Positions 2 through 29,455 of a stretch of 32,000 nt of DNA are shown in pieces. The translations under genes were made by a program, and so were the position numbers. How positions within the stretch are numbered: position 1 is the first letter of the stretch; every line of letters starts with the position of its first letter. Origin of the DNA: an uncultured archaeon (GTDB taxonomy: Archaea; Iainarchaeota; Iainarchaeia; Iainarchaeales; DATDZZ01); the NCBI GenBank assembly GCA_964373795.1, contig CAYJVY010000002.1, positions 54,207-86,206 on the forward strand, given 5' to 3'. The notes beneath the pieces are model-generated. The model was not told the origin of the DNA. It did not search any database and saw only the letters and a list, made by a program, of their open reading frames with translations.

Positions 2-1423
2 GCAGTAGATTTAACTATTTCTCCTTCACAGTTTGAATTACAACAAGGCTCTGAACGCGATTTAATGCTTAACTATTTTGTAAACTCTAATAAAGGCGTG
101 AAAACATTAACTCAAGTGAAAGAATTTGATAAAGTTAAGCTTGACTTTGGATTTAAAGGACATGAAAGCATGCTTTCTACGTCTTATTCCTTTCCTGGAA
201 GAGTAAAAGTAGAAAGGGATGTTCCCTCAGGCGAATATGAATTGAAATTAAGTGTTTTAAACCTTGAAACAAATAATGTTTTGGATTCTGAAACAATTAA
301 AGTAAAAGTAGTTGAAAAAGGAGAGAAAAATTATTTCACTTCTCCTGGAAAAACAATTGAACCAAGAATTGAAAATATTAAATTCAGTGAAAACAACGTA
401 TTGTTGAAAAGAAACGATTCAAAAGAGGTTAAAATTGATTTTGAAAACGCAGGTTCTTTAAGTAATTTTAGAGTGAAAATTGTGAACTCTTCAAAAGAGG
501 TTGAAGGAATTGCATCAAGCAATGAATTTGAAAACCTTTCAAAAGGAACTGCAAGTATTAAACTCGTGTCAAATCCTATTGCAAAAGAAGGAAGCCATGA
601 AGTAAAAGTTTTACTAGTTGACTTGGCTTCATATAAAGAACACTTACTTGGAACAATTAATGTAATAGTAAAACCTTTTTACAACCTTCAAACAAGCGTG
701 GAATTAAATTCAACAGAAGCCAAAATAGGTGAAACAGTTAAAGGAAAACTTGTAATTAAAAATCTTTCAGCATTTGATCAAACGCTTTCCTTAAATGGAA
801 CTCCTGAAATGGAATTTGAATCACAAAAAATTGAACTTGCAGGAAACCAATTGAAATCAATTGAATTCAAAGTCAAGCCATTCAAAGAAGGAGAAAACGG
901 TTTTACAATTAATTTAAACGGAGAAACTAATAGAATTGTATTCATTAAAGTAAAAGGATTAAAAGCAGGTATTTCAAGCACTGAAGACATTGTGAAGGCA
1001 TTTGAGGGAAGCAATATTGCTTTAATTGGATTAGTTGAACCTTCTTGGCCAATTGTTTTAGGAATACTAATTGCAATTCTATTGTATGCTTTATGGAAAA
1101 AAGAACAAGTAATTGAATTCATGCAAAGAATTCTTGGAAACTTGTTAGATGAATTTGTTTTATCTCCAGCTTTTTCAACTCAGTCTTTAAAACAAGAAAG
1201 CAAAGAAGTCAAAGAAGAAATTGAAGAAACTTCTGAAAAAGAAGTTGAAAAAGATTCTTCAGAAGAAAAAAAAACTGAAAACATTGAAGCTCGTGAAGAA
1301 AAAGAAAGTGAAAAAGAATTAGAAGAAATTGTTTCAAAAGAAATTGAAATAAAGCAATTAATTGAAGAATTAGAAGAAAAAATAACTGAAGAAAAACAAA
1401 AAAAATTAAACGAATTCAAATAA
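2..1423 (+). CDS. Cell-surface protein, 5'-truncated by the window edge: repeated beta-sandwich-like ectodomain modules, one C-terminal TM helix, Glu/Lys-rich cytoplasmic tail
   Basis: Frame 2 is open from nt 2 (AVDLTISPSQFELQQGSERDL precedes the first ATG at 65), so the true start lies upstream. Repeated ~100-aa strand-rich modules are present (YELKLSVLNLET..IKVKVVEKG; HEVKVLLVDL..INVIVKP; SIEFKVKPFKEGENGFTINLNG). There is a single hydrophobic helix (WPIVLGILIAILLYALW) followed by a ~100-aa E/K-rich tail and a TAA stop. Confidence 0.7.
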   Translation, partial: AVDLTISPSQFELQQGSERDLMLNYFVNSNKGVKTLTQVKEFDKVKLDFGFKGHESMLSTSYSFPGRVKVERDVPSGEYELKLSVLNLETNNVLDSETIKVKVVEKGEKNYFTSPGKTIEPRIENIKFSENNVLLKRNDSKEVKIDFENAGSLSNFRVKIVNSSKEVEGIASSNEFENLSKGTASIKLVSNPIAKEGSHEVKVLLVDLASYKEHLLGTINVIVKPFYNLQTSVELNSTEAKIGETVKGKLVIKNLSAFDQTLSLNGTPEMEFESQKIELAGNQLKSIEFKVKPFKEGENGFTINLNGETNRIVFIKVKGLKAGISSTEDIVKAFEGSNIALIGLVEPSWPIVLGILIAILLYALWKKEQVIEFMQRILGNLLDEFVLSPAFSTQSLKQESKEVKEEIEETSEKEVEKDSSEEKKTENIEAREEKESEKELEEIVSKEIEIKQLIEELEEKITEEKQKKLNEFK

Positions 1424-1430
1424 AAAAGGC

Positions 1431-1476
1431 CACATCATATAAAAAACAATCATTTTATATGACGTGTTTTCTTTTT
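1431..1476. terminator. Inverted repeat plus T-run between convergent genes (likely bidirectional terminator)
   Basis: CACATCATATAAAA (1431-1444) pairs with TTTTATATGACGTG (1453-1466), 14 bp with one G-U/mismatch. It is followed by TTTTCTTTTT and sits between the stop at 1423 (+) and the stop at 1486 (-). Confidence 0.5.
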
Positions 1477-1485
1477 GGGACAAAT

Positions 1486-4400
1486 TTAAGCAGGGCAAGA
1501 AGAAAGCTCTTCTTTTGAAGGATTATTAATAAGCAAATACCATTTATCTATTGAACCATCTTCATTTGATTTCTTTAAAGCAACAATGTAATCCTTTCCT
1601 TCCTCTAATTCACTGAATACAAGTTCATTTCCTAAAGGGAAATATTTTACATCCTTTAAAGGTTGAACTCCTTGAGTATTAATTGCTACATCAATTTTAT
1701 CCTTATAATCATATACTCCTTGAATTAATTCAGTAAACTCTCTCATTGAATTAAAAGGAATTTCTTTTTCGCCTCTAGCCTTTAAACTCTCTAAATCTTT
1801 ATCTAAAACAGTTCTATTATAAGTATAACAACCCTTTGCCAACACTTTTCCTGTTCCACTTGCAGGCTGACCAGGTTGCCCTCCACTTGGTTGTCCGGGT
1901 TGCCCTGGTTGAACAGCAATTGGCCCTGAAACAGTGAAAGCAAAAGATTTAATCAATCCATCTCCTCTAAAGCATTCATATTGAGGATTAGTTCTATAAT
2001 TAAATGCAGTTGGACAAAAACCAAGATTTTGTAATCCTCTAACATCAATTTTTGACGAATTTTTCTCCCAATAACCAAAGTCTTGCAATGCATCAGCTAT
2101 TGCTGGATTAAATTTTACTTTTACTACTCCAAAATAATCTGCTGCAGGAAAGCCTCTAACTAAATTAACTGGATTACTTAAGCCTTCTCCACAAGAAAAA
2201 GGTTTATCAATAAAATCTGCTGCATTTTTTTTATCAGTTGAATAAAAAGTTATTTGACAAGACTCAATTAAAGGTCCTGGGTCGCCTTTAATCCAATAAT
2301 ATCCTCCAATTCCAAGTGAAGCTAAATCAAATACATCAACTGCATTCTTTAAATTAAATACTCCATATCCCGCGCTTTCAAGATATGAAAGATATAACTG
2401 GCCTTCTTCAATACAGCTTTGCACTAAATTAATGTTTTTACTTGCATTTGGATCAATAGAGTAAAGCAAATTTTTTGGATCTGAAACTAATGTCAGCCAA
2501 TCAGTTCCACTTTTATTTACATATAAATCCAATTCAGATAATTCAGAATTACTTGACTGAAATTCTGCTGTATTACATTTATATAAAGAATAAGCTCTGT
2601 CAGGCAAAGCAGCAACTGTTGCAACAACTCCTGCAGCAGCTAAACCTTTTCCTGCAACCCTTAAAACAGGAGTAACTGCTTTAACTCCTGGAACCGCTGC
2701 AATTCCTGCTCCAACCGCTCCAACTCCTGCCGCAGTCCATCCAATAGGTTTTGCAGCCCATTTAACTACTTTAACTGCTTTTCCAACCCTTGAAGCCCTA
2801 GCAACTACAGCCGCTTCTTGAGCTGTTTCAACAACCCTTCCTGATCCAGCTACAGCAGCTACTGCTTCAGTTGAGTTAACTGCTTTTGCAGCAGCAGCTG
2901 TTTTTCCAGTAACTTCAGCAACAGTTTTTGCTCTAGCAGCTGCTTGAGCAGCAACATTAGCCAAACCAGTTTCAGCTTTAATAATGTCATCTAGTTGAGC
3001 AACATTTTGAACTAAAAGCCTTGTTCCAGACTCAGTTTTATAATATAATCCAACATCATCTCCAAGTGTTATAACTTCTAAAGAAGTAACTCCTGCAACT
3101 CTTGCTTCTTGAACTGCACTAGATAAACCTTTTAATAGTGCAGGAGAGGTTTTGTTTCTCTGATAAAAATCGAATATATTTCTAAGCCTATTCAATCTAT
3201 CTAATTTTATTTCTGGAACTAATTTTCCTACATCTGCAACTGCTTGCACTGAAGGAGTTGCATGCTCTAATGCTTTTCCAAGGCTCACTCCTTCTCTTGT
3301 AACATCATCAACTGAGGAAAGAAGTAAAGTTCCTTGCCCTTCAGCTAAAGGAACTCCTGCAACAGGAATATCTAATACATGTTGTCCTGCTCTAACATAT
3401 AATCCTTGAACTTGTCCAAGCCTTGCTTCAAATCCTGCTTCTTGTAAAACAGTTGCAAGTACTTCCATTCTTTGAGTTGCCTGAGCAACATTTCCAGAAA
3501 ACCTGGAAAGCATTACAGCACTTTCAAGAGATTCTTCTGCAGTAATAAATCCCCTAGTAATAAAGTAAGTTCTTGCTCCAGCCAATCCAGGAGCTCCGGC
3601 TCTTTCTGCATCAGCAATTGCTTGCAATAAAAGCTTTGCTTCTTCTTTAATGAATTTATCTGAATGTCCAAGCAATAAAGCAGCTGCTCTTCTATATTTC
3701 ATAACATCAGTTGACCCAACAGAATCTCCCAATAATTTAGTGAATTTATATCTTCCCAAATTATTTAATCTAGTCATTTCCAAATTAGTTAATTCAGCTA
3801 CCTCTGGCACTCCATAAAAAGCTTTTGAAAAACTTACAGCTGCTTGATTAACAGCAACAGCTGATTTTCCAACAAAAACAGATCCAACTGGTTTAGAAGA
3901 AAACTTACTAGTCGCATTCCAAGAATTAATTAAAGATTCTTTTCTTTTATTAGTTATTCTCCACTTACTAGGAGCTTTTTTAACAGCTGAAACTGCTTCA
4001 GGCACTGAATCCACAACAGGAGTACTAACACTAGCTCCATTTAATATAATTAAGCCTTTTACTTTTCCAACAGAAACATTAACTTTTTGAGAATTCAATG
4101 AATGAGCTAAATCATCCATTTTATCTCCAACTTCAATTAATCTTGAAGTTGTTGCCTCCTCAACTCTTTCAACAAATCTAGGAACAATTATCTCTCTGAC
4201 GCCACCAGGTTTTGGAATAGGAACACCAGTGCCAGTCCCTCTTGACACGCCTTCAGGTGGAAATTCAATAGTAGGCCTTGTAACAGCACTTCTTGGAACA
4301 AATCTTTCAACAGTAACATCACTGCCTTTAGGAAATTGAATTGATGGCTTTTTTTGAGGAAACTCAATAAAAGGCTTTTTTCTAACTGCCCCTGGAGGCA

Positions 4401-5229
4401 CATCTATATCAGGCCTAGGCGTTGCAATAGCAGGAGTTCCAGAGGATTTGGCAGGAATAATAATACTTGGCCCAGTTCTTGCTGCAGAAGTAGCTTTTCT
4501 TGGAAAATGCTTTAAAGAAATTTGTTTCCATCTAGGCCTACTAATTGGTTCTGCTGCACCTCTATTAAATCCCCCAGGAGAATTCAAAATATCTTGATTA
4601 AGTGCATAAGCTCTTGCACCTAATGGATGGCTTGTTCCATATTCTCGAATTAATTCTCCGTTTCGTGTAAAAAGAGCTTCAAGTTTATCTCCAAAAGAAT
4701 GCTGGAAAAAACGAGCAACAGTAAAATCTTTTTCTGAAAAATTTATTGAATTAAATTCATTAGAAAAATTTTTACCTGAAGCATTAATAGTTGTCTCTTC
4801 TAAAGATTCTTCAATTCCATCAATTGTTGAACCAACTTCTTCAATATATGCAAGATCATCTAACACATTTGTTCTTTCATATTCTGCTGCAATTAAAGCA
4901 ATTACTTCTGGATTGTTTTCTAAATCAGTTCCAGCTAAAGCTTCCTGCCATTCAGAGTCATTTCGAATAATTTTTCTCCAAGCAGCAGATTCATCTACTG
5001 CAGTTAAACCTCCTGCAACAAGAGCAGGGGTTTCAAGAATTGATTCACCTGTGTCCATTGAAACTAATCCAGAGTCTTGAACTTGAATTGCTTGCTCGTT
5101 TTCTAAATCAATTGTTTTCCATTTAGAAAAAGTCTTTCCTTGAATACTTATTTCATCCTTTGCAACTCCAGCAAAAATACTTGGAGTTAAAAACAGTAAA
5201 ACAACAAATAATGCAAAAAATTTATGCAT
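1486..5229 (-). CDS. Giant secreted protein (1247 aa), unknown family; mosaic composition
   Basis: N-terminal Sec-type signal peptide MHKFFALFVVLLFLTPSIFAG. Pro-rich short repeats (KPFIEFPQ / KPSIQFPK / RPTIEFPP). Long Ala/Gly/Val/Arg-rich central part with two Gly/Ala-rich hydrophobic segments (PIGWTAAGVGAVGAGIAAVPGV; GLAAAGVVATVAAL). Cys-rich C-terminal region, a PGQPGQPSGGQPGQP linker, then a terminal ~140-aa domain. The ATG overlaps the upstream gene's stop by 8 nt. Confidence 0.8.
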   Translation of the reverse strand: MHKFFALFVVLLFLTPSIFAGVAKDEISIQGKTFSKWKTIDLENEQAIQVQDSGLVSMDTGESILETPALVAGGLTAVDESAAWRKIIRNDSEWQEALAGTDLENNPEVIALIAAEYERTNVLDDLAYIEEVGSTIDGIEESLEETTINASGKNFSNEFNSINFSEKDFTVARFFQHSFGDKLEALFTRNGELIREYGTSHPLGARAYALNQDILNSPGGFNRGAAEPISRPRWKQISLKHFPRKATSAARTGPSIIIPAKSSGTPAIATPRPDIDVPPGAVRKKPFIEFPQKKPSIQFPKGSDVTVERFVPRSAVTRPTIEFPPEGVSRGTGTGVPIPKPGGVREIIVPRFVERVEEATTSRLIEVGDKMDDLAHSLNSQKVNVSVGKVKGLIILNGASVSTPVVDSVPEAVSAVKKAPSKWRITNKRKESLINSWNATSKFSSKPVGSVFVGKSAVAVNQAAVSFSKAFYGVPEVAELTNLEMTRLNNLGRYKFTKLLGDSVGSTDVMKYRRAAALLLGHSDKFIKEEAKLLLQAIADAERAGAPGLAGARTYFITRGFITAEESLESAVMLSRFSGNVAQATQRMEVLATVLQEAGFEARLGQVQGLYVRAGQHVLDIPVAGVPLAEGQGTLLLSSVDDVTREGVSLGKALEHATPSVQAVADVGKLVPEIKLDRLNRLRNIFDFYQRNKTSPALLKGLSSAVQEARVAGVTSLEVITLGDDVGLYYKTESGTRLLVQNVAQLDDIIKAETGLANVAAQAAARAKTVAEVTGKTAAAAKAVNSTEAVAAVAGSGRVVETAQEAAVVARASRVGKAVKVVKWAAKPIGWTAAGVGAVGAGIAAVPGVKAVTPVLRVAGKGLAAAGVVATVAALPDRAYSLYKCNTAEFQSSNSELSELDLYVNKSGTDWLTLVSDPKNLLYSIDPNASKNINLVQSCIEEGQLYLSYLESAGYGVFNLKNAVDVFDLASLGIGGYYWIKGDPGPLIESCQITFYSTDKKNAADFIDKPFSCGEGLSNPVNLVRGFPAADYFGVVKVKFNPAIADALQDFGYWEKNSSKIDVRGLQNLGFCPTAFNYRTNPQYECFRGDGLIKSFAFTVSGPIAVQPGQPGQPSGGQPGQPASGTGKVLAKGCYTYNRTVLDKDLESLKARGEKEIPFNSMREFTELIQGVYDYKDKIDVAINTQGVQPLKDVKYFPLGNELVFSELEEGKDYIVALKKSNEDGSIDKWYLLINNPSKEELSSCPA

Positions 5230-5866
5230 TTTTTTCCAACTCCAGTAAAGGATCTACTTCTTTTGAAACCATTAAACAAGAATCAAAAACTCTGTTAAAA
5301 GCATAAGAAAAATTAGCTGTTTCAGTTGCAAGAGAATCAACATTAATTAAAGGCTTTTGAATTTTTTCATTAATAAAAACCTTTCCAAGTTTTTCATTCA
5401 ATTCATCCGCAGTTAAAACAATTTGAAGAGCCTCTTCTTCCATTTTATTTGTTTCATTCAAATCTTGACAAGCATCAATCAATTTTTTGTTTACAAGAAT
5501 AGCTATTTTCTCAGATAAAACAGATTGTTTTTTTTCCAACTCAATTAATTCTTTATAGTTTTTCACTAAAGATTCAAGTCTTTCATCAGATTTAATTTCT
5601 TTATTTTTTTCCAATTCATTCAAACTTGATTCAAGTTTAACTAAAGTGTTTTCCTCAAACTCAAATGCAAAAGAACTTAAAGCAATATTAAATCCATTCA
5701 AATCAGTGCCAGAATCACTAAATAAAGAAGCAAGTTTTTCAACTGCTTTGCCTTCACCTGAAACCGGTTTTTGCAATAAAGGTAAAACAAAAAAATAAGA
5801 AACAGCTAATAAAATTACTACTAAAACTGCAATTCCAAGTTTAGTTACATCACTCATCACAATCAT
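5222..5866 (-). CDS. N-terminally membrane-anchored coiled-coil protein (module copy 2)
   Basis: One N-terminal TM helix (LGIAVLVVILLAVSYFFVLPLL), then a helical, heptad-like E/K/L/N-rich region with 2 Cys (IDACQD, FDSCLM). It is a paralogue of 8936-9553 and shares the YFFVLPL motif and overall layout. Confidence 0.7.
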   Translation of the reverse strand: MIVMSDVTKLGIAVLVVILLAVSYFFVLPLLQKPVSGEGKAVEKLASLFSDSGTDLNGFNIALSSFAFEFEENTLVKLESSLNELEKNKEIKSDERLESLVKNYKELIELEKKQSVLSEKIAILVNKKLIDACQDLNETNKMEEEALQIVLTADELNEKLGKVFINEKIQKPLINVDSLATETANFSYAFNRVFDSCLMVSKEVDPLLELEKNA

Positions 5867-5882
5867 TCAACGATTTTTTAAT

Positions 5883-6242
5883 TTAACTTGAAGGACTTAT
5901 TCTTGAATTCAATTCATTTGAAAACTTTTTCAACATTTTACTCCAACAAACTAAAACATTTTCACAAGGCAGTTTTGAAACAACTAATCCAGATCCAACT
6001 CCCCCCACAGTTTTTGCAGTAGCAATAGGTGCTCCAGGAGCAACTAAAGTAGAATGTCCTAAAATAACTGTTTTAGGCCCACTAGAAGTTGGTGCTCCGC
6101 TTACTCCTGTTGATCCAGGAGTTCCAGGAGTGGTTCCACCTGAAACAATTGCTGTTCCACTTCCAGTAACTGGAGGAGCAAACACTAAGTCAAGTAATAA
6201 AATTCCTAAAACCAAACTCAAAAAAACAAATTTTAAATTCAT
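5883..6242 (-). CDS. Small secreted Gly/Thr/Pro-rich protein (119 aa)
   Basis: Signal-like N-terminus MNLKFVFLSLVLGILLLDLVFA, low-complexity GTTPGTPGSTGVSGAPTSSGP stretch, two close Cys (LPCENVLVCW). It lies 15-16 nt from both neighbouring genes in the operon. Confidence 0.55.
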   Translation of the reverse strand: MNLKFVFLSLVLGILLLDLVFAPPVTGSGTAIVSGGTTPGTPGSTGVSGAPTSSGPKTVILGHSTLVAPGAPIATAKTVGGVGSGLVVSKLPCENVLVCWSKMLKKFSNELNSRISPSS

Positions 6243-6257
6243 TCAAATCACTCTTTT

Positions 6258-8930
6258 TTAAGGCTGATAAATTTTTTCTCCTTTTTCAAATGAAAAAATT
6301 AAATGCATTGGCTGCAAGTCAGGGAATCTCAAAACCGCAACGTAATAGAAAGGCCCTTCTCTTGCATACTTTGGATTGCTTTCATCGTTTCTTTCAATGT
6401 CTTGCAATTCAAATGCAGGCCCTGTAAATCCAGTAGGATAACTAGTTGGAACACTAAATTTTACTAGATTAGGATTATTTGGATCTGTTTCACTGCCAAT
6501 TAATTGTTCTAAAGGAATTTCCATTGCTGGCTCGCCTTGAGCAACAAGGAAAGCTTTTCTATCATTTCTAATTTGATCTTGAGAATCTACTCTATAATCT
6601 AAATAACTTGTTCTACCCTTTAACTGAGGTGGAACACTTAATTTGAAAACCTTTAAATTAGATTTTGTTTTAAGCTCAGAATAATCTGTTTTAACAGTTA
6701 CAGGTACTTGAGCAGAACTAGCTATAACTAAATCCAATAAATTTGGATCAATTACTAGCAAGCCTTTTCCTCTAGGGCGAATTTCATCAGTGAAAGAAAT
6801 TGTTTTAGAAGTATCGTGATTCAATTTCACTGTAAACCTTAATTCACTATTTGGGTTAATTAAGTTTGAAACAGCATTATAACTAAACAACCATATTTCA
6901 AATTCAGTTGCAGTAGTTATATCTCCCACATTGATTCCATTCAACTGAGAAACAGGAATTTCACATCTAACCAAGGTATCTGTTCCATCACTTAGAGGCG
7001 TACTAATACACTTATTTTCACTAGAGGGATTTGAAGATTCTATACTCCAAATAGCAGAGTTAACAGGAGTTAAATTAACTCCTCCTTTTTCAGGCAATGA
7101 AACAACAGCAGCAGTACTAATAATATTAGTTAAAGGAATACTTCCACTTGCATCTTTTCCTAAATTAAATCTAATAGAATGTCCTGTGGGATGCTTGCTT
7201 TGCAGGAAAGAAATAACTAAACTAAATGGAGGACTTTTTTTGAATGCAACTTCGCTTTCATTTAATACATCTGCAGGAAATTCTTCTCCTTCAACTGTTG
7301 CTTTTAATTGAACTTTGAAAAACTCTGAATCAGTTGCTCCTGGTTTTGAAGTATGAACAGCTGCAGGACCTTCAACTCTTTCAGTTAATTCAGGAGAAAC
7401 ACTTAAAACAACAGTAGAATAATTAGAAGTCCTAGCAGCATCGTCTGAAACCTTTAATTTAATCTTAATTCCAACTCCACTAAACTCAAATGGAACATTA
7501 TAATCAAATGAACTCCTAGCAGAAGGAGATTTACTTGTTAAACTTGCAGGCAATGCAATAGGGGTTTCAGAATTATCTGCATTAATTGAATAAAATTCCC
7601 AATCAAATCTATCAACCCTAGTTCCTTGCAGGCTTTGCTTTACTTCAACATTAAAAGTTAAAGGCTGGCCTTTTCCCACGCCAAATATTTTTCCTTGACC
7701 ATCTTCTACCTCCCCAATTCCAACAACAATAATTTTAGCAGTAGGATTTTCTTTAAGTGGAGGATTTAAACTTCCTCCTCTTGCCTCAACATCCGCTGCA
7801 TTTCCTGCAAGAGCGTCTCTTTGATCACCTGCAGCTCCGGCAAGATTTGAAACAACTACTTTAAAATCAGTAACTACATTTAAAGCTCTTCCTGCAACTC
7901 TGTCAATTGAAATAGTTAAAGTATATTCTCCTGGAGATTTCTTCCATTCAGCAAGTGCCTTTGCACTTAAAGTCTGTGGTTTAGTGAAATCACAATTATT
8001 CAAAAGTGATTGAAAATCAAGGCTTCCACTAAAATCTAAACCTAAAACACCAATTAAGTTATCGTCGGAGCCTTTTTTAGTAATTTGAATTGAACAAGTC
8101 GAAGAAATTGGGGGAACACTAAAACCATACTTTGTAAAAGTTGCATATTTTGAAGTATCAAGAATTTGTTTATTACTTAATTCAGTTAAATCTTTTAAAC
8201 CTATAATAAATGCATTGTGACTTGCCAAATTTATTATGTTTTCAGCCGAAAACTTAAATTCAGACGAGCCTGGAGCAACAGCTGAGTCAAAAGACAATAC
8301 TTCTAATTTAAAGCTATTAACAGGATGGGCGGCAGAAGGATCATGAACTAATCCAGGTTTGGATTCGGCATTTCTAATTAATTCTTCTAATTTTGCAGGA
8401 TTTGCCATGATTTTTGTAACCCTAATATCTGTTTCTCCAAGACCAATTATTCCAGTAGCAGTTTCATAGCCTGCAGCTACATCTAAAGATAATTCTTGTG
8501 CAATAGATGAAACACCAGATCCTTCCAAAATCCTTCGATATTTTTCTTCAGAATCAACTTTAACTTTTTCATGAAGTTTATACCAATAAACTCCATTCCA
8601 AGCATAAGTAGTAAAATAATAATCACTCAAAGTTGTATCAGGCACTATCTTCAAAATTTTTTGGCCATTATAAAAAAAATCAATACATTGGTACTCAGCA
8701 TCATCGTCATCAATATCTCTTTCCGCCAAAGTAAAATCTGTTTCTAGTAGGCCAACTAATAAATTAATATTAAGTTTATCAGGGCAATCAAACATGTCTA
8801 AATTGCCAGTGGTCCAAGTATCTCCTGAATTAATTGTTATAGGGTCAAGCCTATCCATTTTTGCACTGATAACTGTTTGACTCAAAAAAAGCAAGAAAAT
8901 TAATGCAAGAAATATTTTTGAAAAATTCAT
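6258..8930 (-). CDS. Large secreted protein (890 aa) with Ig/PKD-like beta-sandwich region, unknown family
   Basis: Signal peptide MNFSKIFLALIFLLFLSQTVISA. An acidic DIDDDDAEYQC patch. A PKD-like stretch (RVDRFDWEFYSINADN..IKIKLKVSDD). No C-terminal anchor. It starts 5 nt after the upstream gene. Confidence 0.8.
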   Translation of the reverse strand: MNFSKIFLALIFLLFLSQTVISAKMDRLDPITINSGDTWTTGNLDMFDCPDKLNINLLVGLLETDFTLAERDIDDDDAEYQCIDFFYNGQKILKIVPDTTLSDYYFTTYAWNGVYWYKLHEKVKVDSEEKYRRILEGSGVSSIAQELSLDVAAGYETATGIIGLGETDIRVTKIMANPAKLEELIRNAESKPGLVHDPSAAHPVNSFKLEVLSFDSAVAPGSSEFKFSAENIINLASHNAFIIGLKDLTELSNKQILDTSKYATFTKYGFSVPPISSTCSIQITKKGSDDNLIGVLGLDFSGSLDFQSLLNNCDFTKPQTLSAKALAEWKKSPGEYTLTISIDRVAGRALNVVTDFKVVVSNLAGAAGDQRDALAGNAADVEARGGSLNPPLKENPTAKIIVVGIGEVEDGQGKIFGVGKGQPLTFNVEVKQSLQGTRVDRFDWEFYSINADNSETPIALPASLTSKSPSARSSFDYNVPFEFSGVGIKIKLKVSDDAARTSNYSTVVLSVSPELTERVEGPAAVHTSKPGATDSEFFKVQLKATVEGEEFPADVLNESEVAFKKSPPFSLVISFLQSKHPTGHSIRFNLGKDASGSIPLTNIISTAAVVSLPEKGGVNLTPVNSAIWSIESSNPSSENKCISTPLSDGTDTLVRCEIPVSQLNGINVGDITTATEFEIWLFSYNAVSNLINPNSELRFTVKLNHDTSKTISFTDEIRPRGKGLLVIDPNLLDLVIASSAQVPVTVKTDYSELKTKSNLKVFKLSVPPQLKGRTSYLDYRVDSQDQIRNDRKAFLVAQGEPAMEIPLEQLIGSETDPNNPNLVKFSVPTSYPTGFTGPAFELQDIERNDESNPKYAREGPFYYVAVLRFPDLQPMHLIFSFEKGEKIYQP

Positions 8931-8935
8931 TTAAT

Positions 8936-9553
8936 TTACACCTTCAAGTTTTTGCATTCAGTTTTAAATGACTCAACTTGTTTTTTTGATTCAGAGTTTT
9001 TTGATTCAAGGTTAGCAATACTTAAAGTTGATTCAGATACATTTAGCTTGGAAAATTCTTGAGGATTAGAAGACTTTAATTCATTTAATTTTGCTTCAAA
9101 ACTTTTTTGCGCGAAAACAAGTTTTTCTTCTGCTTGAACTGCTTTTTCTAAAAATGAAAGCTTAGAGCAAACCTGTTCATCAGTTGAAAACTCTGTTACA
9201 TCAAATTTAGCAGTATTTTCTTTAACTGCATTTGATTGTTCTGCTACTTCAAGTTTTAATAAAACTACTTCAGTTGTTAAACTTAAAGCCTTTCCTTCAG
9301 CGCTGGAAAGATTTAAAGAATTCTTAAAAGAATTTAATTCATTTTTTAAAGCAGTTAAATCTTTTCCTTTCACATCAGCTGCAAGAGGAGAAAAATTTAA
9401 TCCATTTTTTTGAAGCAAAGAATTCAATTCAGAAAGCCCTTCATCAAATGAAACAGTTTTTTTAACCATTAAAGGTAATACAAAAAAATACCCTAAAACA
9501 AGTACAACAATCACAGCCAATAAAATTCCTAAATTTTTAAACCGCGAATCCAT
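8936..9553 (-). CDS. N-terminally membrane-anchored coiled-coil protein (module copy 1)
   Basis: N-terminal TM helix LGILLAVIVVLVLGYFFVLPLM, helical E/K/L/N/S-rich remainder, 2 Cys (EQVCSK, KTECKN). It is the first gene of the five-gene operon. AT-rich TATA-like boxes (TTTTATATAA, AATTATATAC on the minus strand) lie at about 9600-9631 upstream. Confidence 0.7.
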   Translation of the reverse strand: MDSRFKNLGILLAVIVVLVLGYFFVLPLMVKKTVSFDEGLSELNSLLQKNGLNFSPLAADVKGKDLTALKNELNSFKNSLNLSSAEGKALSLTTEVVLLKLEVAEQSNAVKENTAKFDVTEFSTDEQVCSKLSFLEKAVQAEEKLVFAQKSFEAKLNELKSSNPQEFSKLNVSESTLSIANLESKNSESKKQVESFKTECKNLKV

Positions 9554-9666
9554 TAATTCAACTCTTTAAAGCTTTAAACTTTCAAGCATTAATACAGTGT
9601 ATATAATTTGATTAGAATACTTATATAAAAACCTAACCTTTTAGCGTTTGTTTTTCATTTAAAGAC

Positions 9667-9930
9667 TTAAAATTCAGTTTCATACACGTTTTTTCTATGC
9701 TTTACAGTTGCAATAATTACTTCATTAGAATTTGTTTTAATTGAATAAATAACTCTAAATTTTTCTATATGCAGGCTTCTAAAATTCTTGAAAACATTGC
9801 TTAAAGGTTTTCCAAGTTCAAGGGTTTGTTTTAGCTCTTCAATCTTTTTAATTAATTGAATCTTTAAAGATTTATCAATTTTCTTTAACTCCTTTAAAGC
9901 TTTAACAGAGTAAAATATTTCAAAACTCAT
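9667..9930 (-). CDS. Type II toxin, RelE/ParE superfamily (87 aa)
   Basis: Size and pattern are typical of the family: KALKELKKIDKSLKIQLIKKIEEL..LGKPL..FRSLHIEKFRVIYSI..EVIIATVKHRKNVY. Its ATG overlaps the upstream small ORF's TGA as ATGA. Confidence 0.75.
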   Translation of the reverse strand: MSFEIFYSVKALKELKKIDKSLKIQLIKKIEELKQTLELGKPLSNVFKNFRSLHIEKFRVIYSIKTNSNEVIIATVKHRKNVYETEF

Positions 9931-10103
9931 TTCAAACCTAGTTCCTTTAATACTTTTTCATGGTTAATTGTTTTTCCTTCTCTATGCTCTTTTTCTGCTA
10001 AAGCTATTGCCTTTAAATCTTTTAATAGCTCTGCATCACTAATTTGCTTTTCAATAGCACTCCTAGCAACTTCACTCCACTTAAATTCAGGGTGAATCTT
10101 CAT
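9927..10103 (-). CDS. Cognate antitoxin candidate (58 aa as read; possibly N-terminally truncated by an in-frame TAG)
   Basis: My hand translation gives MKIHPEFKWSEVARSAIEKQISDAELLKDLKAIALAEKEHREGKTINHEKVLKELGLK. There is a 4-nt ATGA overlap with the toxin. An upstream in-frame ATG at 10148 reads MVNIT-TAG-SVSKDLYEK before this Met. Confidence 0.55.
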   Translation of the reverse strand: MKIHPEFKWSEVARSAIEKQISDAELLKDLKAIALAEKEHREGKTINHEKVLKELGLK

Positions 10104-10324
10104 TTTTTCATACAGGTCTTTAGAAACAGACTAAGTAATATTAACCATTAAATAAACTATTTGTAATATGTGCAAACAAATATTTAGATATATTGAAATA
10201 AATTCGTTTTTAGAAATTAATTTGGGTTTTAATAGAAAAAACAAAAAAATAATTTTAACCTACTCTTTACATGAAATTATCAAATAAAAAAAAAGAAAAA
10301 GAAAGGAGGAGAGGGTTAATGTAT

Positions 10325-11089
10325 TTAAGGTACTGTAACCAATGCATCTTCTATTACACCCATTGCTGCCATCTGTGATCGAACAGATAGAAGATCTGGA
10401 CGAGTTTTCTTTAACTCCGTACGCAAAGCATCAAATTGTGTGTGTAAGTCAAGAAAACCTGGTACATCCTTTGCTTTCGAAAGTGCATCAAATTTAGCTC
10501 CTAATTCAGCAAATGCTGCTGGATTAAGTGCCTTTTTTACCATAGCTCCACCTTCAAGAACTTGCTGAACTGTAAACTGGCGGTCTCGAAGTAAGGCGCT
10601 AGCAGTTGTATTAATATTTTTAGAATGCTCTGGAAGCGCGTTTTCAAGTACTGAAGTTACTTCTTTAAGATCCCTAGCAGATACTTCTTCAACTCTTTGT
10701 TGCTTCATTGCAGCATTACCGTATTTACCAACATAAAATTTGTTAACACTTGCAAGTGCATCTTTAAGATGAACTATTTGGGCTGCTAAAGCCTCTCTTC
10801 TTGTTTCCCATTTTCTAATTTTTTTCTCAAGTCTATTCATTCTCCACTTAGGGAAAAACCAACTAAACCTGCCAGCTTGAACACCTGCTTGTCTAGCTCT
10901 TAATCTAGCTATTTTTTCCTCCACTTTAGCAAGCCTTTCACCCTCTAATTTTCCAACTCTTTCCTCAGTTTTTAAAGATCTTTTCTCTAATTGAGGTGCT
11001 GCTCTTCTTAATTCAGCAGCAGCTCTAGCTTTTCCAGCTTCAGCTGCAGCCGCAGTCAACTTTTTATATCGTTCCATTGGACGTCTCAT
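10325..11089 (-). CDS. Hypothetical Ala/Arg-rich coiled-coil protein (254 aa), compositionally atypical
   Basis: Strong SD (GGAGGAGAG) upstream of the ATG. Local GC is about 42% against about 30% in neighbours. The Ala/Arg/Leu-rich protein (AAAAEAGKARAAAELRRAAPQLEKR...) is unlike the Lys/Glu/Asn/Ile-rich neighbours. It is flanked by ~220-250-nt AT-rich spacers. Confidence 0.6.
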   Translation of the reverse strand: MRRPMERYKKLTAAAAEAGKARAAAELRRAAPQLEKRSLKTEERVGKLEGERLAKVEEKIARLRARQAGVQAGRFSWFFPKWRMNRLEKKIRKWETRREALAAQIVHLKDALASVNKFYVGKYGNAAMKQQRVEEVSARDLKEVTSVLENALPEHSKNINTTASALLRDRQFTVQQVLEGGAMVKKALNPAAFAELGAKFDALSKAKDVPGFLDLHTQFDALRTELKKTRPDLLSVRSQMAAMGVIEDALVTVP

Positions 11090-11339
11090 TCATTCTCTCC
11101 TCCATAGAATACAAATTTATTGATAAAATTATAATTAATTTATAAGTTTTTGGATATTTAAAGGTTTGCAAGAAAGCTTTTAAATGAAACAAATTAACGT
11201 GAAAAAATTACTTCTCTTTGATTTTTTTTCTTTTATATTAGTTTTTATATCAATAAATTGTCATCGTAAATTGTCGAAAGAAGACAAAGATTATTAACTT
11301 CTTTTATGCAATTTTTTTACTGAAAAAAAGGTTGAAAAA

Positions 11340-12107
11340 ATGGTTAAAGCAATTGAGTCTGGAAAAGGAATTGCATTAATGTTTTCAGAAGAAGAAGTTA
11401 GAAAACTAGGATTAAAACTGGATGCAAAATATGAAGTGAATAAAGCAAAAGAAAACTTGTATGTGTTAACTGCAGTAGAGCCTTCAATGGATGAGCAAAT
11501 AATTTCTTTAGTGCATGAAACTCCTTTCAAGAACAGAGTTGAAGGAGTGTTTGAAAAAACTCTTGATAAAGATGCTTTGAAAAGATTTAAGGAAATGGTT
11601 GAAGAAGGAAAAATCATTAAATTCAAGTTATCAGAAAAATACAAAAAACCAATTTATAAAACACTTGAAGAAGTTAAAGGAAAACCAATAGAAAAAACTG
11701 AGAGTTTTCCGCCAAAAACAAGTTCAGTAAAAGAATTCGAAATGCCAAAATTAGAAGCAGAAGAAGATATGGAAAACTATTCCTTAGAAAAACACGGATT
11801 TATTGCTTCAAAAAACGGGGAAAGAATTAGACAATTAAGTCATGACTTGCGAACAGAATTTGAAGAAAGAGAATTAAAAGGAATTAAATCATTTGAAGGA
11901 ACTTACTATTTAATTAAAACTCAGTTATATAATTCAGTGAAAGAAAAAGTTTTGAAAGAATTAAAAGAAAAAAAAGAATCAAAACTGGAAAACTTAATTC
12001 AAAAACTTCAATTAAATCCTGAATTAATTAAAATGACTTGCGAGTTTTTAAAAGAAGAAGGAGAATTAATTGAAAAACAAAAAAATTTATTTAAATACGT
12101 GGATTAA
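11340..12107 (+). CDS. Hypothetical protein (255 aa), possibly winged-helix-like segments
   Basis: Long ORF with the window's typical K/E-rich composition and no motif I can name confidently. Confidence 0.55.
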   Translation: MVKAIESGKGIALMFSEEEVRKLGLKLDAKYEVNKAKENLYVLTAVEPSMDEQIISLVHETPFKNRVEGVFEKTLDKDALKRFKEMVEEGKIIKFKLSEKYKKPIYKTLEEVKGKPIEKTESFPPKTSSVKEFEMPKLEAEEDMENYSLEKHGFIASKNGERIRQLSHDLRTEFEERELKGIKSFEGTYYLIKTQLYNSVKEKVLKELKEKKESKLENLIQKLQLNPELIKMTCEFLKEEGELIEKQKNLFKYVD

Positions 12108-12119
12108 AGTGAAAACAAA

Positions 12120-12500
12120 ATGACTAGAATTTTATTGCCCTTAATTTCAAGGCATGAAAACAATGCTGCATTCATTGAAGAAGCAACAAAAAAAGTTAAA
12201 GAAGCAATAATTTTACTAATAGTTGACAGTTTTAATCCAGGATATGGATTTAATGCATCAGAATTAAGAGATGGAACAAAATTATTAGAAGAAGTTAAAA
12301 CCTTAATTGGCCTGAAAAGAAAAACAGCAATTGATTTAACTGTTTGGGGAGAAACAAAAGAAAAAATAATTAACACTGCAATAATTCGAGGAGTGGAAAG
12401 AATTGTTTTAATTCGCTCTCAAGAATCTTGGTTTAAAGAATTAGAAAAAGATTTAAGAAAAAAATTAAAAAAAGAAAAAATTACAGTTCATGTAATTTGA
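12120..12500 (+). CDS. Universal stress protein (UspA)-like alpha/beta protein
   Basis: 126 aa. ILLPL..(beta1), AIILLIVD (beta), GETKEKIINTAIIRGVERIVL resembling the USP C-terminal G-x2-G..(S/T) region. This is weak, pattern-level evidence only. Confidence 0.4.
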   Translation: MTRILLPLISRHENNAAFIEEATKKVKEAIILLIVDSFNPGYGFNASELRDGTKLLEEVKTLIGLKRKTAIDLTVWGETKEKIINTAIIRGVERIVLIRSQESWFKELEKDLRKKLKKEKITVHVI

Positions 12501-24003: not shown

Positions 24004-24065
24004 TCATCTCACAACAAAAAATACTGAAGAGCAATTTTAATTTGTTTCGCAAGAAAAATGCGTTA

Positions 24066-24608
24066 ATGAAAGTCATTGGTTTAACTGGATTAGCCAGAAG
24101 TGGAAAAGACACTGTTGCAAATTATTTAGTGGAAAAATATTCGTTCAAGCATTTCGATTTTTTCCGTGATACAATAATCCCTGAACTAGAAAAAAGAAAT
24201 TTAGAAATAACAAAACAAAATGGCTCTCAACTAGCTGGAAAATTAAGGCAAGAATTTGGATTAGGAGTTATTGCTGAAAAATTAATTGAAAGAATTGCAA
24301 AAGAAAATTTTAGTTCATTAAAAGGAGTAGTGATTACTGGATTTAGAGACACTAAAGAAGTCAAGTTATTGAAAAAAAAGTTTCCAAAATTAATGCTTAT
24401 TTTAATTGAAGCAGAAGCAGAGAAAAGATTTGACAGACGAGATGAAAAAACTCCTGCAAATAGAGAAATATTTTTTCAAAGAGATGAATTTGATTCAAAA
24501 ACATGGGGAATGCAAAAAGTTTTCAAGTTAGCAAAATTAAAAATAGAAAATAGTGGTTCTAAAGAAGATCTTTATAAGAAAATTGATTCAATATTGAAAA
24601 AAATTTGA
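24066..24608 (+). CDS. P-loop nucleotide kinase (dNMP-kinase / dephospho-CoA-kinase-like)
   Basis: Walker A VIGLTGLARSGKDTVANYL. I prefer the ATG at 24066 over the TTG at 24042 used by the ORF track. The subfamily is uncertain. Confidence 0.55.
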   Translation: MKVIGLTGLARSGKDTVANYLVEKYSFKHFDFFRDTIIPELEKRNLEITKQNGSQLAGKLRQEFGLGVIAEKLIERIAKENFSSLKGVVITGFRDTKEVKLLKKKFPKLMLILIEAEAEKRFDRRDEKTPANREIFFQRDEFDSKTWGMQKVFKLAKLKIENSGSKEDLYKKIDSILKKI

Positions 24609-26284: not shown

Positions 26285-26863
26285 TTATTTCATGGTGCCT
26301 AAAATTTGTTTTACTTTTTTCACTATATCCGAAGTAGGATTTCTGAATAAAAATGCATCTAAGGAAGTTTTGTTATGGCATTTCCTACTTTGAGAGGCTT
26401 TTTCAAAATCAATTATTACTGGCAGGAAGTTTTCTTTGCGAATTAAAATATTGCTTCCACGGCCTGCGAGTTGCCCGTGATCTAAACCAATTTCATCCAA
26501 TTTTTTTGCTTGTTCATACAAGGAATCAATTGCTTTTTGCAAAACCTGTTTTGACGGAATTCTGTTAAGCCAATTAGAAAAACTAGTGCCTTCAATGAAT
26601 TCCAATAAAATTGTTTTCAATTCAGAATCAAATGAAATTAATTTAGGGCCAATGCCGTGCTTGTTTGCAAGTTGAAGATTTGCAACTTCTTTTTCAACCA
26701 TATTAATTCTACGAGACTTATCTCTTTCAATCTTTAATGCAAACTTTTTTCCTTCTGCATTGCAAACTAAGTATATTTCGCTTGAAAACCCTTTAGAAAT
26801 TTTATCAATTAATTGCAGCGAATTTTTTTCTAAAAACTTTTCAAGATTTTCCTGAGAAGACAT
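26285..26863 (-). CDS. Small RIO/Bud32-like protein kinase-fold protein with atypical catalytic motifs
   Basis: Gly-loop-like SKGFSSEIYL, VAIK-like FALKIE, LLEFIEG hinge, LDHGQLAGRGSNILI in place of HGDL..N, and IIDFEKAS in place of DFG. Confidence 0.55.
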   Translation of the reverse strand: MSSQENLEKFLEKNSLQLIDKISKGFSSEIYLVCNAEGKKFALKIERDKSRRINMVEKEVANLQLANKHGIGPKLISFDSELKTILLEFIEGTSFSNWLNRIPSKQVLQKAIDSLYEQAKKLDEIGLDHGQLAGRGSNILIRKENFLPVIIDFEKASQSRKCHNKTSLDAFLFRNPTSDIVKKVKQILGTMK

Positions 26864-27020: not shown

Positions 27021-27488
27021 TTATTTTTTTCTAATATTAACTATTTCTCCTTTACTTGCTTTAAGTAATTCTTTTGAAGAAATCTTTATAAGTGAATTCT
27101 CTGACCCCCCTCCAGTGAAAACAAATTCTTTTTCTAAAACCTTTGAATCAATTAAAAACCTTGCTTGAAAACCAAAAGAAGGAGTTCCTCCACAAGGAAA
27201 CCCGGTTTTATCCAAAATTTCTTTTGGAGTTGCAAGCCTAGGCATTTCATTATTCAAAACTTTTCCAACCTTTGTTGCACTAGCTCTTTCATTTCCTCTA
27301 ACAATTGCAACAACTAAGTTTTCGTGAGAATCAATCATGCAAACATTTTTCACAAAGTCTTCAGGCAAAGCATTTACAACTCTTGCAGCTTCTTCAACTG
27401 AATGACAAGACTCCTGAAAACTTAAATGCTCTGCAACGATATTGTTTTCCTTCAAGAATCTCTTCATTTTTTCTTCAAAAACATTCAT
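27021..27488 (-). CDS. YbaK/ProX-type aminoacyl-tRNA deacylase domain protein
   Basis: 155 aa. KNVCMID...LVVAIVRGNERASATKV and FPCGGTPSFGF resemble the YbaK-family K..(G)G(V/T)SP(F/L)G pattern. Confidence 0.65.
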   Translation of the reverse strand: MNVFEEKMKRFLKENNIVAEHLSFQESCHSVEEAARVVNALPEDFVKNVCMIDSHENLVVAIVRGNERASATKVGKVLNNEMPRLATPKEILDKTGFPCGGTPSFGFQARFLIDSKVLEKEFVFTGGGSENSLIKISSKELLKASKGEIVNIRKK

Positions 27489-27536
27489 AACAAATTAGTA
27501 ATGCAAAACTCTTTTAATTCCCAAATTCATTAATTC

Positions 27537-27668
27537 GTGGTTGAACCGTTCGCGCGGTTGACGCAGGCTGTTTCGCCTGACAAGGGCAAGCTCTGCTTTA
27601 GGCGGTGCACAGCCTCGCCGGCTGCTCGGCGTAACATTCACATCCATCAAGGTACAAGCAAGCTTTTT
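27537..27668. ncRNA. Unclassified GC-rich structured element (candidate ncRNA or leader)
   Basis: ~130 nt at roughly 55-60% GC in an intergenic region that is otherwise very AT-rich. Hairpins: AACCG/CGGTT (27544-27559), CAGGC/GCCTG (27564-27579), AGGC/GCCT (27600-27615), CGCCG/CGGCG (27616-27631). An alternative nested fold pairs AGGCTG (27565-70) with CAGCCT (27610-15) and CGCCT (27574-78) with AGGCG (27600-04). The plus strand ends in GCTTTTT (27662-27668). The strand is not resolved. Confidence 0.45.
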
Positions 27669-27805
27669 AAACCTTTATATCCATCAAATTTAATATAAAT
27701 GATTTTATTAAATAAAATCTATTTTTTAGTGCAGAATTGTTTTTGGCTTAGTGTCAACTACAGTTTTGCAGCCATTAAATAAACTTTTAAGGAGGAATTA
27801 ATTAA

Positions 27806-29455
27806 ATGGCTCAAGCAGATAATGCAAATCAACAAGTTGTTTTTCTTACTGAGGGAAGTAAGAGAACTAAGGGCAGAGAAGCTCAAAGAATAAATATTTT
27901 AATTGCAAAAGCAGTTGCAAATGCAGTTAAATCAACTTTAGGACCTAAAGGAATGGATAAAATGATTGTAGACGAATTAGGAGATATTACTATTTCTAAC
28001 GATGGAGCTACAATTTTGGATCAAATGAGTATTGATCATCCAATAGGGAAAATGATGGTGGAAGTAGCTAAAACTCAGGAAAGCGAAGTAGGAGATGGAA
28101 CTACTACTGCAGTAATAATTGCTGGAACACTACTTCAAAAAGCTGAAAAATTAATTGATGACGAAATTCATCCAACAGTTTTAATTAATGGTTATAGAAT
28201 TGCTGCAAAAAAAGCTAGAGAAATTTTAAACAATACAGCTTCAAAGATCGACATTCAAGATAGTAAAATTCTTGGAAAAATTGCTTTAACTTCAATGACA
28301 GGAAAAAGCGCTGAATCCGCTTCAGAGTTAAGTCAATTAGTTGTAAAAGCAATTACTACTATTGCTGAAGAAAAAGAAGGAAAAATAGTTGTAGACAAAG
28401 ACTTAATTAAATTAGAGAAAAAGACAGGAGAATCTTTAGCTGATAGTATATTAATTAATGGAATAGTTGTAGACAAAGAAATAGTGCATAGTCAAATGCC
28501 TAAGAAATTAACTAATGCAAAAATTGCTTTAATTGATGCAGCTTTAGAAATTAAGAGTCCTGAAACAGACACTAAAGTTGAAATTAATTCTCCTGAACAA
28601 TTACAAGCATTTTTGGATGCAGAGGAAAACACTTTAAGAAAAATGGTTTCAAAAATAAAAGAATCAGGAGCAAACATAGTGTTTTGCCAAAAAGGAATAG
28701 ACGATTTAGCTCAACATTTTTTAGCAAAAGAAAATATTGCCGCAGTTAGAAGAGTTAAAAAATCTGACATGGATAAACTAGCAAAAGCAACTGGTGCACA
28801 AATCGTTGCAAGAATTAATGGATTAACTTCAACTGATTTAGGGCATGCTAAAAAAATTGAGGAAAAAAAAGTTGGCGATGAAAACATGGTTTTCGTTGAA
28901 GACACTAAAAACAATAAAGCTGTTACTTTGATTATTAGAGGAGGATCTGAACACGTAATAGATGAAGCTCAAAGAGCAATTGAAGACGCAATAGGATCTG
29001 TTTCAACTGCAATCAAAGACGGAAAAGTTGTTTTCGGTGGAGGAGCAATTGAAGTAGAAGTTGCAAATCAATTAAGAGAATTCGCTAAAACAATTGGCGG
29101 AAAAGAACAACTAGCAATAAACGAGTTTGCAGATACTTTGGAAGTAGTTCCTAGAACTTTAGCTGAAACAGCTGGAATGGATCCATTAGACACATTAGTT
29201 AACTTGAGATCAAGACATTCAGCTGGAAAAGGTAAAAACATTGGAATCAATGTATACAAAGGAGAATTAGCTGACATGGAAGAATTAAATGTTTTAGAGC
29301 CTTTATCAGTTAAAACTCAAGCAATTATTAGTGGAACTGAAGTAGCTGAAATGATTTTAAGAATTGATGATATCATTGCAGGACAAAGCAAGCCAGGAGC
29401 TAGAGGCGGAATGCCAGGAATGCCTCCAGGCATGCCACCAGGCGAAGACTACTAA
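27806..29455 (+). CDS. ths: Thermosome subunit (group II chaperonin)
   Basis: [26 protein letters not shown], and a C-terminal [13 protein letters not shown] tail. Strong SD AAGGAGGA upstream. Confidence 0.95.

Follow-up and report, generated by a model that had tools for sequence, protein, structure and literature searches.

A GC-rich hairpin island beside a conserved thermosome promoter in an uncultured archaeon of the Iainarchaeota

We analyzed a 32-kb stretch of DNA (contig CAYJVY010000002.1, positions 54,207 to 86,206; here called the window and numbered from its first letter) from an uncultured archaeon of the Iainarchaeota, focusing on a noncoding interval bounded on the left by a gene for a YbaK/tRNA-editing-domain protein (27021-27488, minus strand) and on the right by a thermosome subunit gene (27806-29455, plus strand). 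The interval holds a GC-rich island of short hairpins (27537-27632). Tentatively, and as something close to an even call, we read this island as a degenerate GC-rich repeat of palindromic modules, similar to repetitive extragenic palindromes (REPs) or miniature inverted-repeat transposable elements (MITEs), that lies at a rearrangement junction and has no transcription unit of its own. The segment that adjoins it (27633-27687) is almost certainly a conserved thermosome promoter, and the two-box TATA architecture of thermosome genes across the Iainarchaeota is the most solid new information in the interval. An original prediction, made from the letters alone, had taken the island for an unclassified structured RNA. 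A GC-rich, hairpin-forming noncoding element that fits no RNA family is indeed present; what did not hold up is the discrete gene with its own signals, and the case for a novel structured RNA equipped with a promoter and terminator of its own is weakened.

Composition and hairpins of the island

The island (27537-27632, no strand assigned) has a GC content of 64.6%, against 31% in its left flank, 25% in its right flank, and 31.2% in the window as a whole, which bears out the predicted GC-rich island in an AT-rich intergenic region. The highest 80-nucleotide (nt) GC peak of the 32 kb (67.5%, at position 27551) exceeds the window mean by more than 5 standard deviations, and every other window peak of at least 50% GC falls within long open reading frames (ORFs).

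Four short GC hairpins had been predicted, and four perfect 5-bp hairpins are observed, where dinucleotide shuffles lead one to expect 0.74 ± 0.85 (P = 0.007). Read from the sequence, these are hairpin 1 (AACCG-ttcgcg-CGGTT; 27544-27559, no strand assigned), hairpin 2 (CAGGC-tgtttc-GCCTG; 27564-27579, no strand assigned), hairpin X (CAGCC-tcgcc-GGCTG; 27610-27624, plus strand), and hairpin Y (CGCCG-N6-CGGCG; 27616-27631, plus strand). As their coordinates overlap, hairpins X and Y are mutually exclusive. An imperfect hairpin, H3 (GCTCTGC-tttag-GCGGTGC; 27590-27608, plus strand), contains one U·U mismatch and one G·U pair and has a counterpart in the hairpin-array family described below. With four hairpins of 15 to 16 nt each within 96 nt, the island contains short G+C-rich palindromic stem-loops of the type expected of REPs and of bacterial interspersed mosaic elements (BIMEs), whose units measure 20 to 40 bp.

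A dispersed family of hairpin arrays in related genomes

By screening AT-rich related loci for noncoding GC islands, we found a family of hairpin arrays (L-numbers such as L007, L131, and L247 label the related genome and metagenome loci used in the comparison). In L007 (35% GC), the closest thermosome relative in the genome collection, an array of ∼200 nt with 65 to 69% GC directly follows the thermosome stop codon. It is a chain of perfect 5- to 7-bp hairpins with fold z-scores of −5.8 and −7.5 on the two strands, and among its ten strain variants, entire modules (17 and 23 nt) have been inserted or deleted. Arrays of this type (L007:5624-5830, L087-L096, L131:1417-1632, and L193:1-70) occur in at least three genomic contexts within this other Iainarchaeota lineage: in L131, the modules, in partly permuted order, follow an ATPase gene and precede an Rpr2-like gene, and in L193, they adjoin yet other genes. 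As it occupies several contexts and differs between strains by insertions and deletions of whole modules, the L007-type array is a dispersed, modular, fast-changing intergenic element.

Some members came from a metagenome pattern scan, for which 80 of the 95 reported stretches were listed, with 96 readable matches. Among the matches listed, nearly all were chance occurrences in DNA of 54 to 80% GC, and three were real relatives in AT-rich DNA, namely, L164 (on the same contig as L093) and the new loci L131 and L193. An Rfam search of the L007-family loci and of the YbaK relatives returned only a tRNA elsewhere, and the translated pseudo-ORF of the L007 array had no match in the protein collection. 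No tandem-repeat structure beyond a 12-nt duplication was found in the L007-type arrays, and some family units contain CGTC...GACG.

Chains of perfect palindromes with different, AT-richer sequences (for example, TTTTGCATGGCAAAA and CTTTTCTT...AAGAAAAG) were also seen in the thermosome 3′ regions of L008, L009, L014, L015, L020, L022, and L028; hairpin arrays after the thermosome gene seem to be a recurrent trait. In L020 (5310-5480), an apparent tRNA gene (GGGCGTGTAGCTCAGCCTGGTTAGAGC ... GGGTTCAAATCCCTCCATGCCCA) is split by ∼95 nt of palindromes of this kind, with GCAAGC and GCAATGC centers, and similar ones also lie just downstream; introns of tRNA genes may be open to invasion by these repeats. 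In L039, a DPANN genome with 33% GC, ARAGORN with introns calls a 340-nt tRNA-Trp (5713-6052) shortly downstream of the thermosome gene, with an implied intron of ∼265 nt.

Resemblance of the island to the hairpin-array family

Both alignment and hidden Markov model (HMM) comparison show a resemblance between a segment of the island (27586-27633, plus strand) and one module (GCACTGCTTCAGCAGTGCACCGTTTCGCCGACGGGACGGCG) of the L007/L090/L131/L193 arrays. The segment and the module are identical at 31 of 42 positions with 1 gap, a score that none of 3,000 dinucleotide shuffles reached; in an earlier shuffle test of the island against L007, 1 of 1,000 did. An HMM of the module matched the window with an E value of 5.2 × 10−4, the profile region having been picked after the match was seen.

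The hairpins of this segment have counterparts in the family. H3 corresponds to a perfect hairpin, GCACTGC-ttca-GCAGTGC, from which the island copy has decayed by one mismatch and one wobble. For hairpin X, the family form is CCGTT/CCGTC-tcgcc-GACGG; the loop TCGCC is identical in the island, and two of the five pairs in the stem differ at both bases (A-U for C-G and C-G for U-A). The overlapping hairpin Y is kept in both. When H3, X, and Y are in register, 97.7% of cells are paired, versus 22 to 54% in slid controls, the comparison being effectively one of two lineages. Taken together, the alignment and the shared hairpins are suggestive of a family link, and common descent would account for them.

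The same observations bear on the possibility that the island is a functionless relic unrelated to the L007 family, that is, foreign or decayed DNA left at the junction, with hairpins and resemblance that stem from GC-rich composition. Such a relic would fit the junction position (described below), the borderline family link, the degenerate H3, and the lack of significant global structure. We nevertheless consider it unlikely, given the hairpin excess at P = 0.007, the alignment score unmatched in all 3,000 shuffles, and mismatches to the family that form compensatory pairs in one stem around an unchanged loop; the plus-strand ORF of the island, moreover, has no protein homologue.

Several points weigh against our preferred reading of the island as a degenerate repeat copy. 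The unbiased HMM of the full family gave only a borderline E value of 0.011, its sole two matches in the window both falling inside the island, and a single-sequence nhmmer comparison of the island with the family gave an E value above 1. Nothing in the L007 family corresponds to the left half of the island, and the similarity of the right half is borderline, being short and shared by two sequences that are both GC rich in AT-rich backgrounds. The 32-kb window holds one copy of the island, no transposase domain was found in window ORFs of at least 100 amino acids (aa), and the island has neither a significant terminal inverted repeat nor GTAG or CGTC tags at the foot of its hairpins. That a sequence with 65% GC persists in a genome with 31% GC points to a recent arrival or to selection, the latter of which would favor a functional RNA. 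Finally, eight G·U pairs favor the plus-strand fold of the island over the minus-strand fold, which is not predicted for a pure DNA element.

A further possibility is that the island and the L007 arrays together represent an undescribed Iainarchaeota (DPANN) family of GC-rich RNA hairpin modules that spreads in a REP-like manner, with a functional copy in the window. The conserved, mutually exclusive hairpins X and Y would then exert their effect as RNA, for example as stability or termination switches or as a small RNA (sRNA). We regard this version as decidedly improbable.

A break in synteny at the island

A RIO-like kinase gene (minus strand) directly adjoins the thermosome gene (plus strand) in L087, L098, L099, and L100, with spacers of 59 to 200 nt. 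The RIO-like kinase gene of the window (26285-26863; minus strand in the relatives) encodes a product with 52 to 57% identity to the kinase of these relatives and is thus its orthologue. In the window, a 40-aa ORF, the YbaK gene, and the island lie between the kinase and thermosome genes. As the kinase-thermosome adjacency of the relatives is broken here by YbaK and the island, gene order thus places the island at the apparent thermosome-side junction of a lineage-specific rearrangement. The island was absent from the equivalent thermosome spacer in every relative examined (∼25 related thermosome loci). Synteny of YbaK is not conserved either; its homologues elsewhere have other neighbors and no island. 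An AAA_17/18 kinase gene, which lies 3′ of the thermosome gene in relatives, is found at 24042-24608 in the window.

Under the preferred reading, 27537-27632 would be an array of 15- to 19-nt hairpins and a degenerate copy of a presumably mobile repeat whose modules are gained and lost between strains. This copy would sit at the right-hand junction of the rearrangement that placed YbaK between the RIO-like kinase and thermosome genes. It would probably lack a dedicated promoter or terminator, and its transcription, if any, would occur by read-through.

The thermosome promoter next to the island

We compared thermosome upstream regions across ∼45 related loci. On the plus strand of the window, the thermosome gene is preceded by a distal box, AACATTCACATCCATCAA (27633-27650, with the core ACATCCATCAA at 27640-27650); by a B recognition element (BRE) and TATA box, AAGC-TTTTTAAA (27660-27671), conserved in related thermosome loci; and by a proximal box, CCTTTATATCCATCAA (27672-27687, with the core ATATCCATCAA at 27677-27687). 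Judging from the usual archaeal distance between TATA and start, transcription should begin near 27694, giving a predicted 5′ untranslated region (UTR) of ∼110 nt (27694-27805) with a Shine-Dalgarno sequence, AGGAGG, at 27790-27795. The distance from TATA to ATG is similarly long in the relatives, at 74 to 160 nt (248 nt in L022).

In the relatives, the conserved promoter reads (A/G)G(C/G)T-TTTTAAA and continues without a gap as C(A/C)TT(T/C)ATATCCATCAAT. In the thermosome upstream regions of L007-L025, L028, L032, L046, L051, L097, and L098, CATTTATATCCATCAAT comes immediately after TTTTTAAA, and a box copy behind the TATA is seen in ∼20 related thermosome promoters in all. The box is duplicated in at least 10 related lineages, with the additional copy, (C)A(T/C)ATCCA(T/G)CAA, 32 to 37 bp upstream of the proximal one. 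In the window, the distal and proximal boxes form a direct repeat with 37-bp spacing and the shared form A(T/C)ATCCATCAA; the core pattern of the box occurs only these two times in the 32 kb and not once inside the island. The composite of TATA and box was found in 16 related thermosome promoters and the window and at one other place in 705 kb, so that it is nearly confined to thermosome promoters there. We are highly confident that 27633-27687 is a conserved thermosome promoter, in which the core would consist of a BRE/TATA flanked by two direct copies of the box, 37 bp apart.

The boxes are candidate operators of a sequence-specific factor, and here we find the evidence evenly balanced. The proximal box is a conserved site between the TATA box and the predicted start in orthologous promoters, as expected of an operator, but the boxes are direct repeats unrelated to the published heat shock palindromes. 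A factor bound at the downstream box, in the interval between TATA and start, would block polymerase recruitment, so that it might act as a repressor.

These promoter elements also account for two supposed signals of the island. The plus-strand terminator proposed at GCTTTTT (27662-27668) and the ACA noted after the last hairpin are real as letters, but the former is the thermosome BRE/TATA and the latter is part of the distal box. The ACA triplets at 27634-27636 and 27640-27642 both fall within this conserved promoter box. As these letters match promoter elements that are conserved in relatives without the island, neither is an island signal.

An ATTC tetranucleotide is found on both sides of the island (27533-27536 and 27636-27639), and excising 27537-27639 would restore ...ATTAATTC-ACATCCATCAA, which is near the distal-box consensus ACATTCACATCCATCAA. 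The ATTC pair might be a target-site duplication, although 4 nt is too short to carry weight.

The position of the island directly upstream of the distal box, between divergent promoters, also invites the idea that it is additional regulatory DNA of the thermosome gene, for instance an insulator or GC-rich clamp that separates AT-rich promoters, or a site where further factors bind. However, the ∼25 related thermosome promoters that have these boxes do without an island, and no box-like motif lies inside it, which makes this role very unlikely.

A probable YbaK promoter

A TATA-like box, TTTTAATT (AATTAAAA on the minus strand), had been predicted to precede the island as a plus-strand promoter element at 27514-27521. 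The box exists, at 27512-27519, but it fits the minus-strand promoter of YbaK: its center lies ∼28 nt upstream of the YbaK ATG (27488), this ATG lacks a Shine-Dalgarno sequence, unlike many other genes in the window, and two YbaK relatives (L247 and L248) carry TTTAATAAAA 22 to 31 nt ahead of their ATG. Because of this geometry, the missing Shine-Dalgarno sequence, and the same layout in the two relatives, the simplest reading is that 27512-27519 is the likely TATA box of a leaderless or near-leaderless YbaK mRNA, which would be transcribed from the strand opposite to the thermosome gene. Use of the box by a plus-strand transcript is possible. Upstream of the YbaK promoter, L247 (1160-1265) and L248 (1370-1470) share a conserved noncoding stretch of ∼100 to 130 nt, moderately rich in GC. 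This stretch matched nothing in Rfam, folds with a z-score of only −1.5, and bears no detectable resemblance to the GC island of the window.

The minus strand had also been suggested to carry the island as the 5′ leader of the YbaK gene, which would make it a structured leader or cis-regulatory RNA of the YbaK mRNA. The island does lie upstream of YbaK on that strand, and the near-symmetric thermosome TATA could in principle fire backwards. We nonetheless hold this explanation to be the remotest of those considered. Fold statistics are poorest on the minus strand, where shuffles do as well (z-scores of +0.42 over a 143-nt stretch and, in the strict island, −0.70). In addition, a TATA-like box centered ∼28 nt ahead of the ATG, which lacks a Shine-Dalgarno sequence, is available to YbaK itself, and the relatives of YbaK share this leaderless arrangement, with no homologous leader.

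The extended fold and a possible small-RNA gene

An alternative extended fold had been proposed in which the bases of the short hairpins are reused. This fold is the minimum free energy (MFE) structure of the plus strand; it pairs AGGCUGU with ACAGCCU and UCGCCUGA with UUAGGCGG and comprises 39 pairs (23 G-C, 8 G·U, and 8 A-U). Its stability shows no clear gain over shuffles, with plus-strand z-scores of −1.72 for the 143-nt stretch (11 of 200 shuffles equally good) and −1.04 for the strict island, and on neither strand does the fold stability clearly exceed what composition provides. At the DNA level, no significant inverted repeat between the island halves was found (score of 7, versus 6.5 ± 1.2 in shuffles), nor was a significant direct repeat of the two halves. 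Across 471 kb of related DPANN loci, a covariance model of the 39-bp long hairpin had no match other than itself. Homology in relatives, which might have supported an RNA gene, thus failed to do so, the long fold being unmatched in these 471 kb and the island missing at syntenic sites. The proposed switch-like exclusivity survives for hairpins X and Y, a pair that recurs with compensatory changes in a related element, and not for the long fold, which has no homologue.

An independent, structured plus-strand sRNA gene would be transcribed from the TTTTAATT promoter, with its start near 27540-27547 and its end at the T run at 27664-27668, and would fold as one long hairpin or as alternative short hairpins. 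We judge this gene, in either form, to be unlikely. In its favor, the strongest noncoding GC island of a 31% GC genome has a TATA-like box ∼25 nt upstream, the plus strand, with its eight G·U pairs, folds better than the minus strand, and hairpin X shows compensatory changes and the X/Y alternative is kept in a related element. Its proposed box, however, fits the leaderless YbaK promoter, and its T run is the thermosome TATA, so that the transcript would cross the distal box into the core promoter. The fold z-scores of only −1.0 to −1.7, the lack of an Rfam family, the absence of both a fold homologue in 471 kb of related DNA and an island at syntenic sites, and the location of related modules in the 3′ regions of unrelated genes rather than behind promoters also argue against it. 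The repeat reading and the sRNA reading are compatible, since transcription of REP-like elements is common.

Searches against known RNA, protein, and viral classes

Rfam 15 at gathering scores gave no match in the whole window, in agreement with the unclassified status that the original prediction had assigned to the island. On 451 nt and with E values up to 10, only three chance matches appeared (E = 4.7 to 7.7), and the covariance models of tRNA, 5S rRNA, signal recognition particle (SRP) RNA, and RNase P RNA had no match. ARAGORN at default settings found no tRNA with or without introns. These negatives uphold the earlier failure to fit the island to tRNA, 5S, SRP RNA, RNase P, or C/D models. 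An H/ACA guide RNA would have a pseudouridylation pocket, a K-turn or K-loop, and an ACA ∼14 to 16 nt from that pocket. The absence of a proper H/ACA pocket was likewise upheld: the MFE structure has no internal pocket, and neither a tandem G·A motif nor an Rfam H/ACA match was found.

Other candidates were rejected. A tRNA-Val-like call by ARAGORN, made only at the 80% threshold, has a mismatched acceptor stem and no T-loop. Inspection by eye for H/ACA, C/D box, 5S, and split or permuted tRNA revealed no K-turn, box motifs, or end pairing. As a protein-coding fragment, the 53-aa plus-strand ORF retrieved a single repeat-rich, retroelement-like protein from 1.84 billion representatives, which we judged to be spurious; this search covered the plus-strand ORF of the island. 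For a protein-coding fragment, Pfam gave no match, and four IMG/VR scans for a viral origin yielded nothing or chance matches.

Flanking genes and other parts of the window

The nearest database relatives are 69% identical for YbaK and 72 to 73% identical for the thermosome subunit and bear names such as Iainarchaeum, Diapherotrites, and Woesearchaeota, which makes the source a DPANN archaeon nearest to the Iainarchaeota that lacks a closely related sequenced genome. At 65-12500 of the window, Pfam (E ≤ 1e-4) matched none of nine consecutive ORFs, two of whose products measure 1247 and 890 aa. Local GC peaks of 50 to 59% lie within the large ORFs of this block, at 1819-1952, 2645-2877, 4177-4462, 6063-6186, and 7756-7860. 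The block may encode lineage-specific or surface proteins, or it may be a mobile region.

Comparison with known systems

Klein, Misulovin, and Eddy reportedly used GC islands in 2002 as a signature for finding noncoding RNAs in AT-rich archaea. Hgc and SscA RNAs have Rfam entries. The window island resembles such loci in being a sharp noncoding GC island in an AT-rich archaeal genome. It differs from them in that it has no Rfam match (Hgc and SscA included) and no conserved fold and in that its supposed promoter and terminator are better explained by the neighboring genes.

Bacterial REPs and BIMEs are short, G+C-rich, imperfect intergenic palindromes that are often clustered and often located just after stop codons (PMC3733652). 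Strains differ in how many they carry and in how these are arranged, transcription into RNA hairpins is plausible, and each unit in the REP families has a conserved tetranucleotide, GTAG or CGTC, at one of its ends (PMC3733652). The L007 family shares the palindromes, the clustering, the position after a stop codon, and the strain variation, and the window island shares these only partly. The island differs in having no GTAG or CGTC tag, stems of 5 to 7 bp, and a DPANN host; no gene for a RAYT or an IS200/IS605-type transposase lies near it, and the stems of the L007 family reach 7 bp. Like MITEs and IS200/IS605-derived palindromes, which are small, noncoding, structured, and present in dispersed copies and at synteny break points, the island is a small structured element at such a point, but it has no significant terminal inverted repeat, its only possible target duplication is the weak 4-nt ATTC, and no parent insertion sequence was seen. 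We describe the island as behaving like a small palindromic repeat rather than as a member of a named family, because the tested defining features of REPs (tag and RAYT) and of MITEs (terminal inverted repeat and target duplication) fail. If the repeat reading is true, intergenic structure and rearrangement in DPANN genomes arise in part from small GC-rich palindromic modules, and GC islands in these genomes should not be taken for RNA genes without a check of copy number and synteny.

For the thermosome promoter, the closest parallels are archaeal heat shock promoters. Phr of Pyrococcus recognizes a palindromic site and acts between the TATA box and the start site (PMC10746257). HSR1 of Archaeoglobus is associated with CTAAC-N5-GTTAG downstream of the BRE/TATA, and the cct1 promoter of Haloferax volcanii has required elements on either side of the TATA box and a CGAA motif (PMC2396416). 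The window boxes differ from all three in being nonpalindromic direct repeats, 32 to 37 bp apart across the related loci, that are unrelated to CTAAC-N5-GTTAG and CGAA. They share with these promoters a conserved element that immediately follows the TATA box in front of a chaperone gene and, with H. volcanii cct1, a second element upstream of the BRE/TATA, which in the window is the distal box. As for Phr and HSR1, the position of the proximal box is compatible with repression through blocked polymerase recruitment. The putative operator sequence offers a route to the chaperone or heat shock regulator of the uncultured Iainarchaeota, which is possibly more useful than the island itself.

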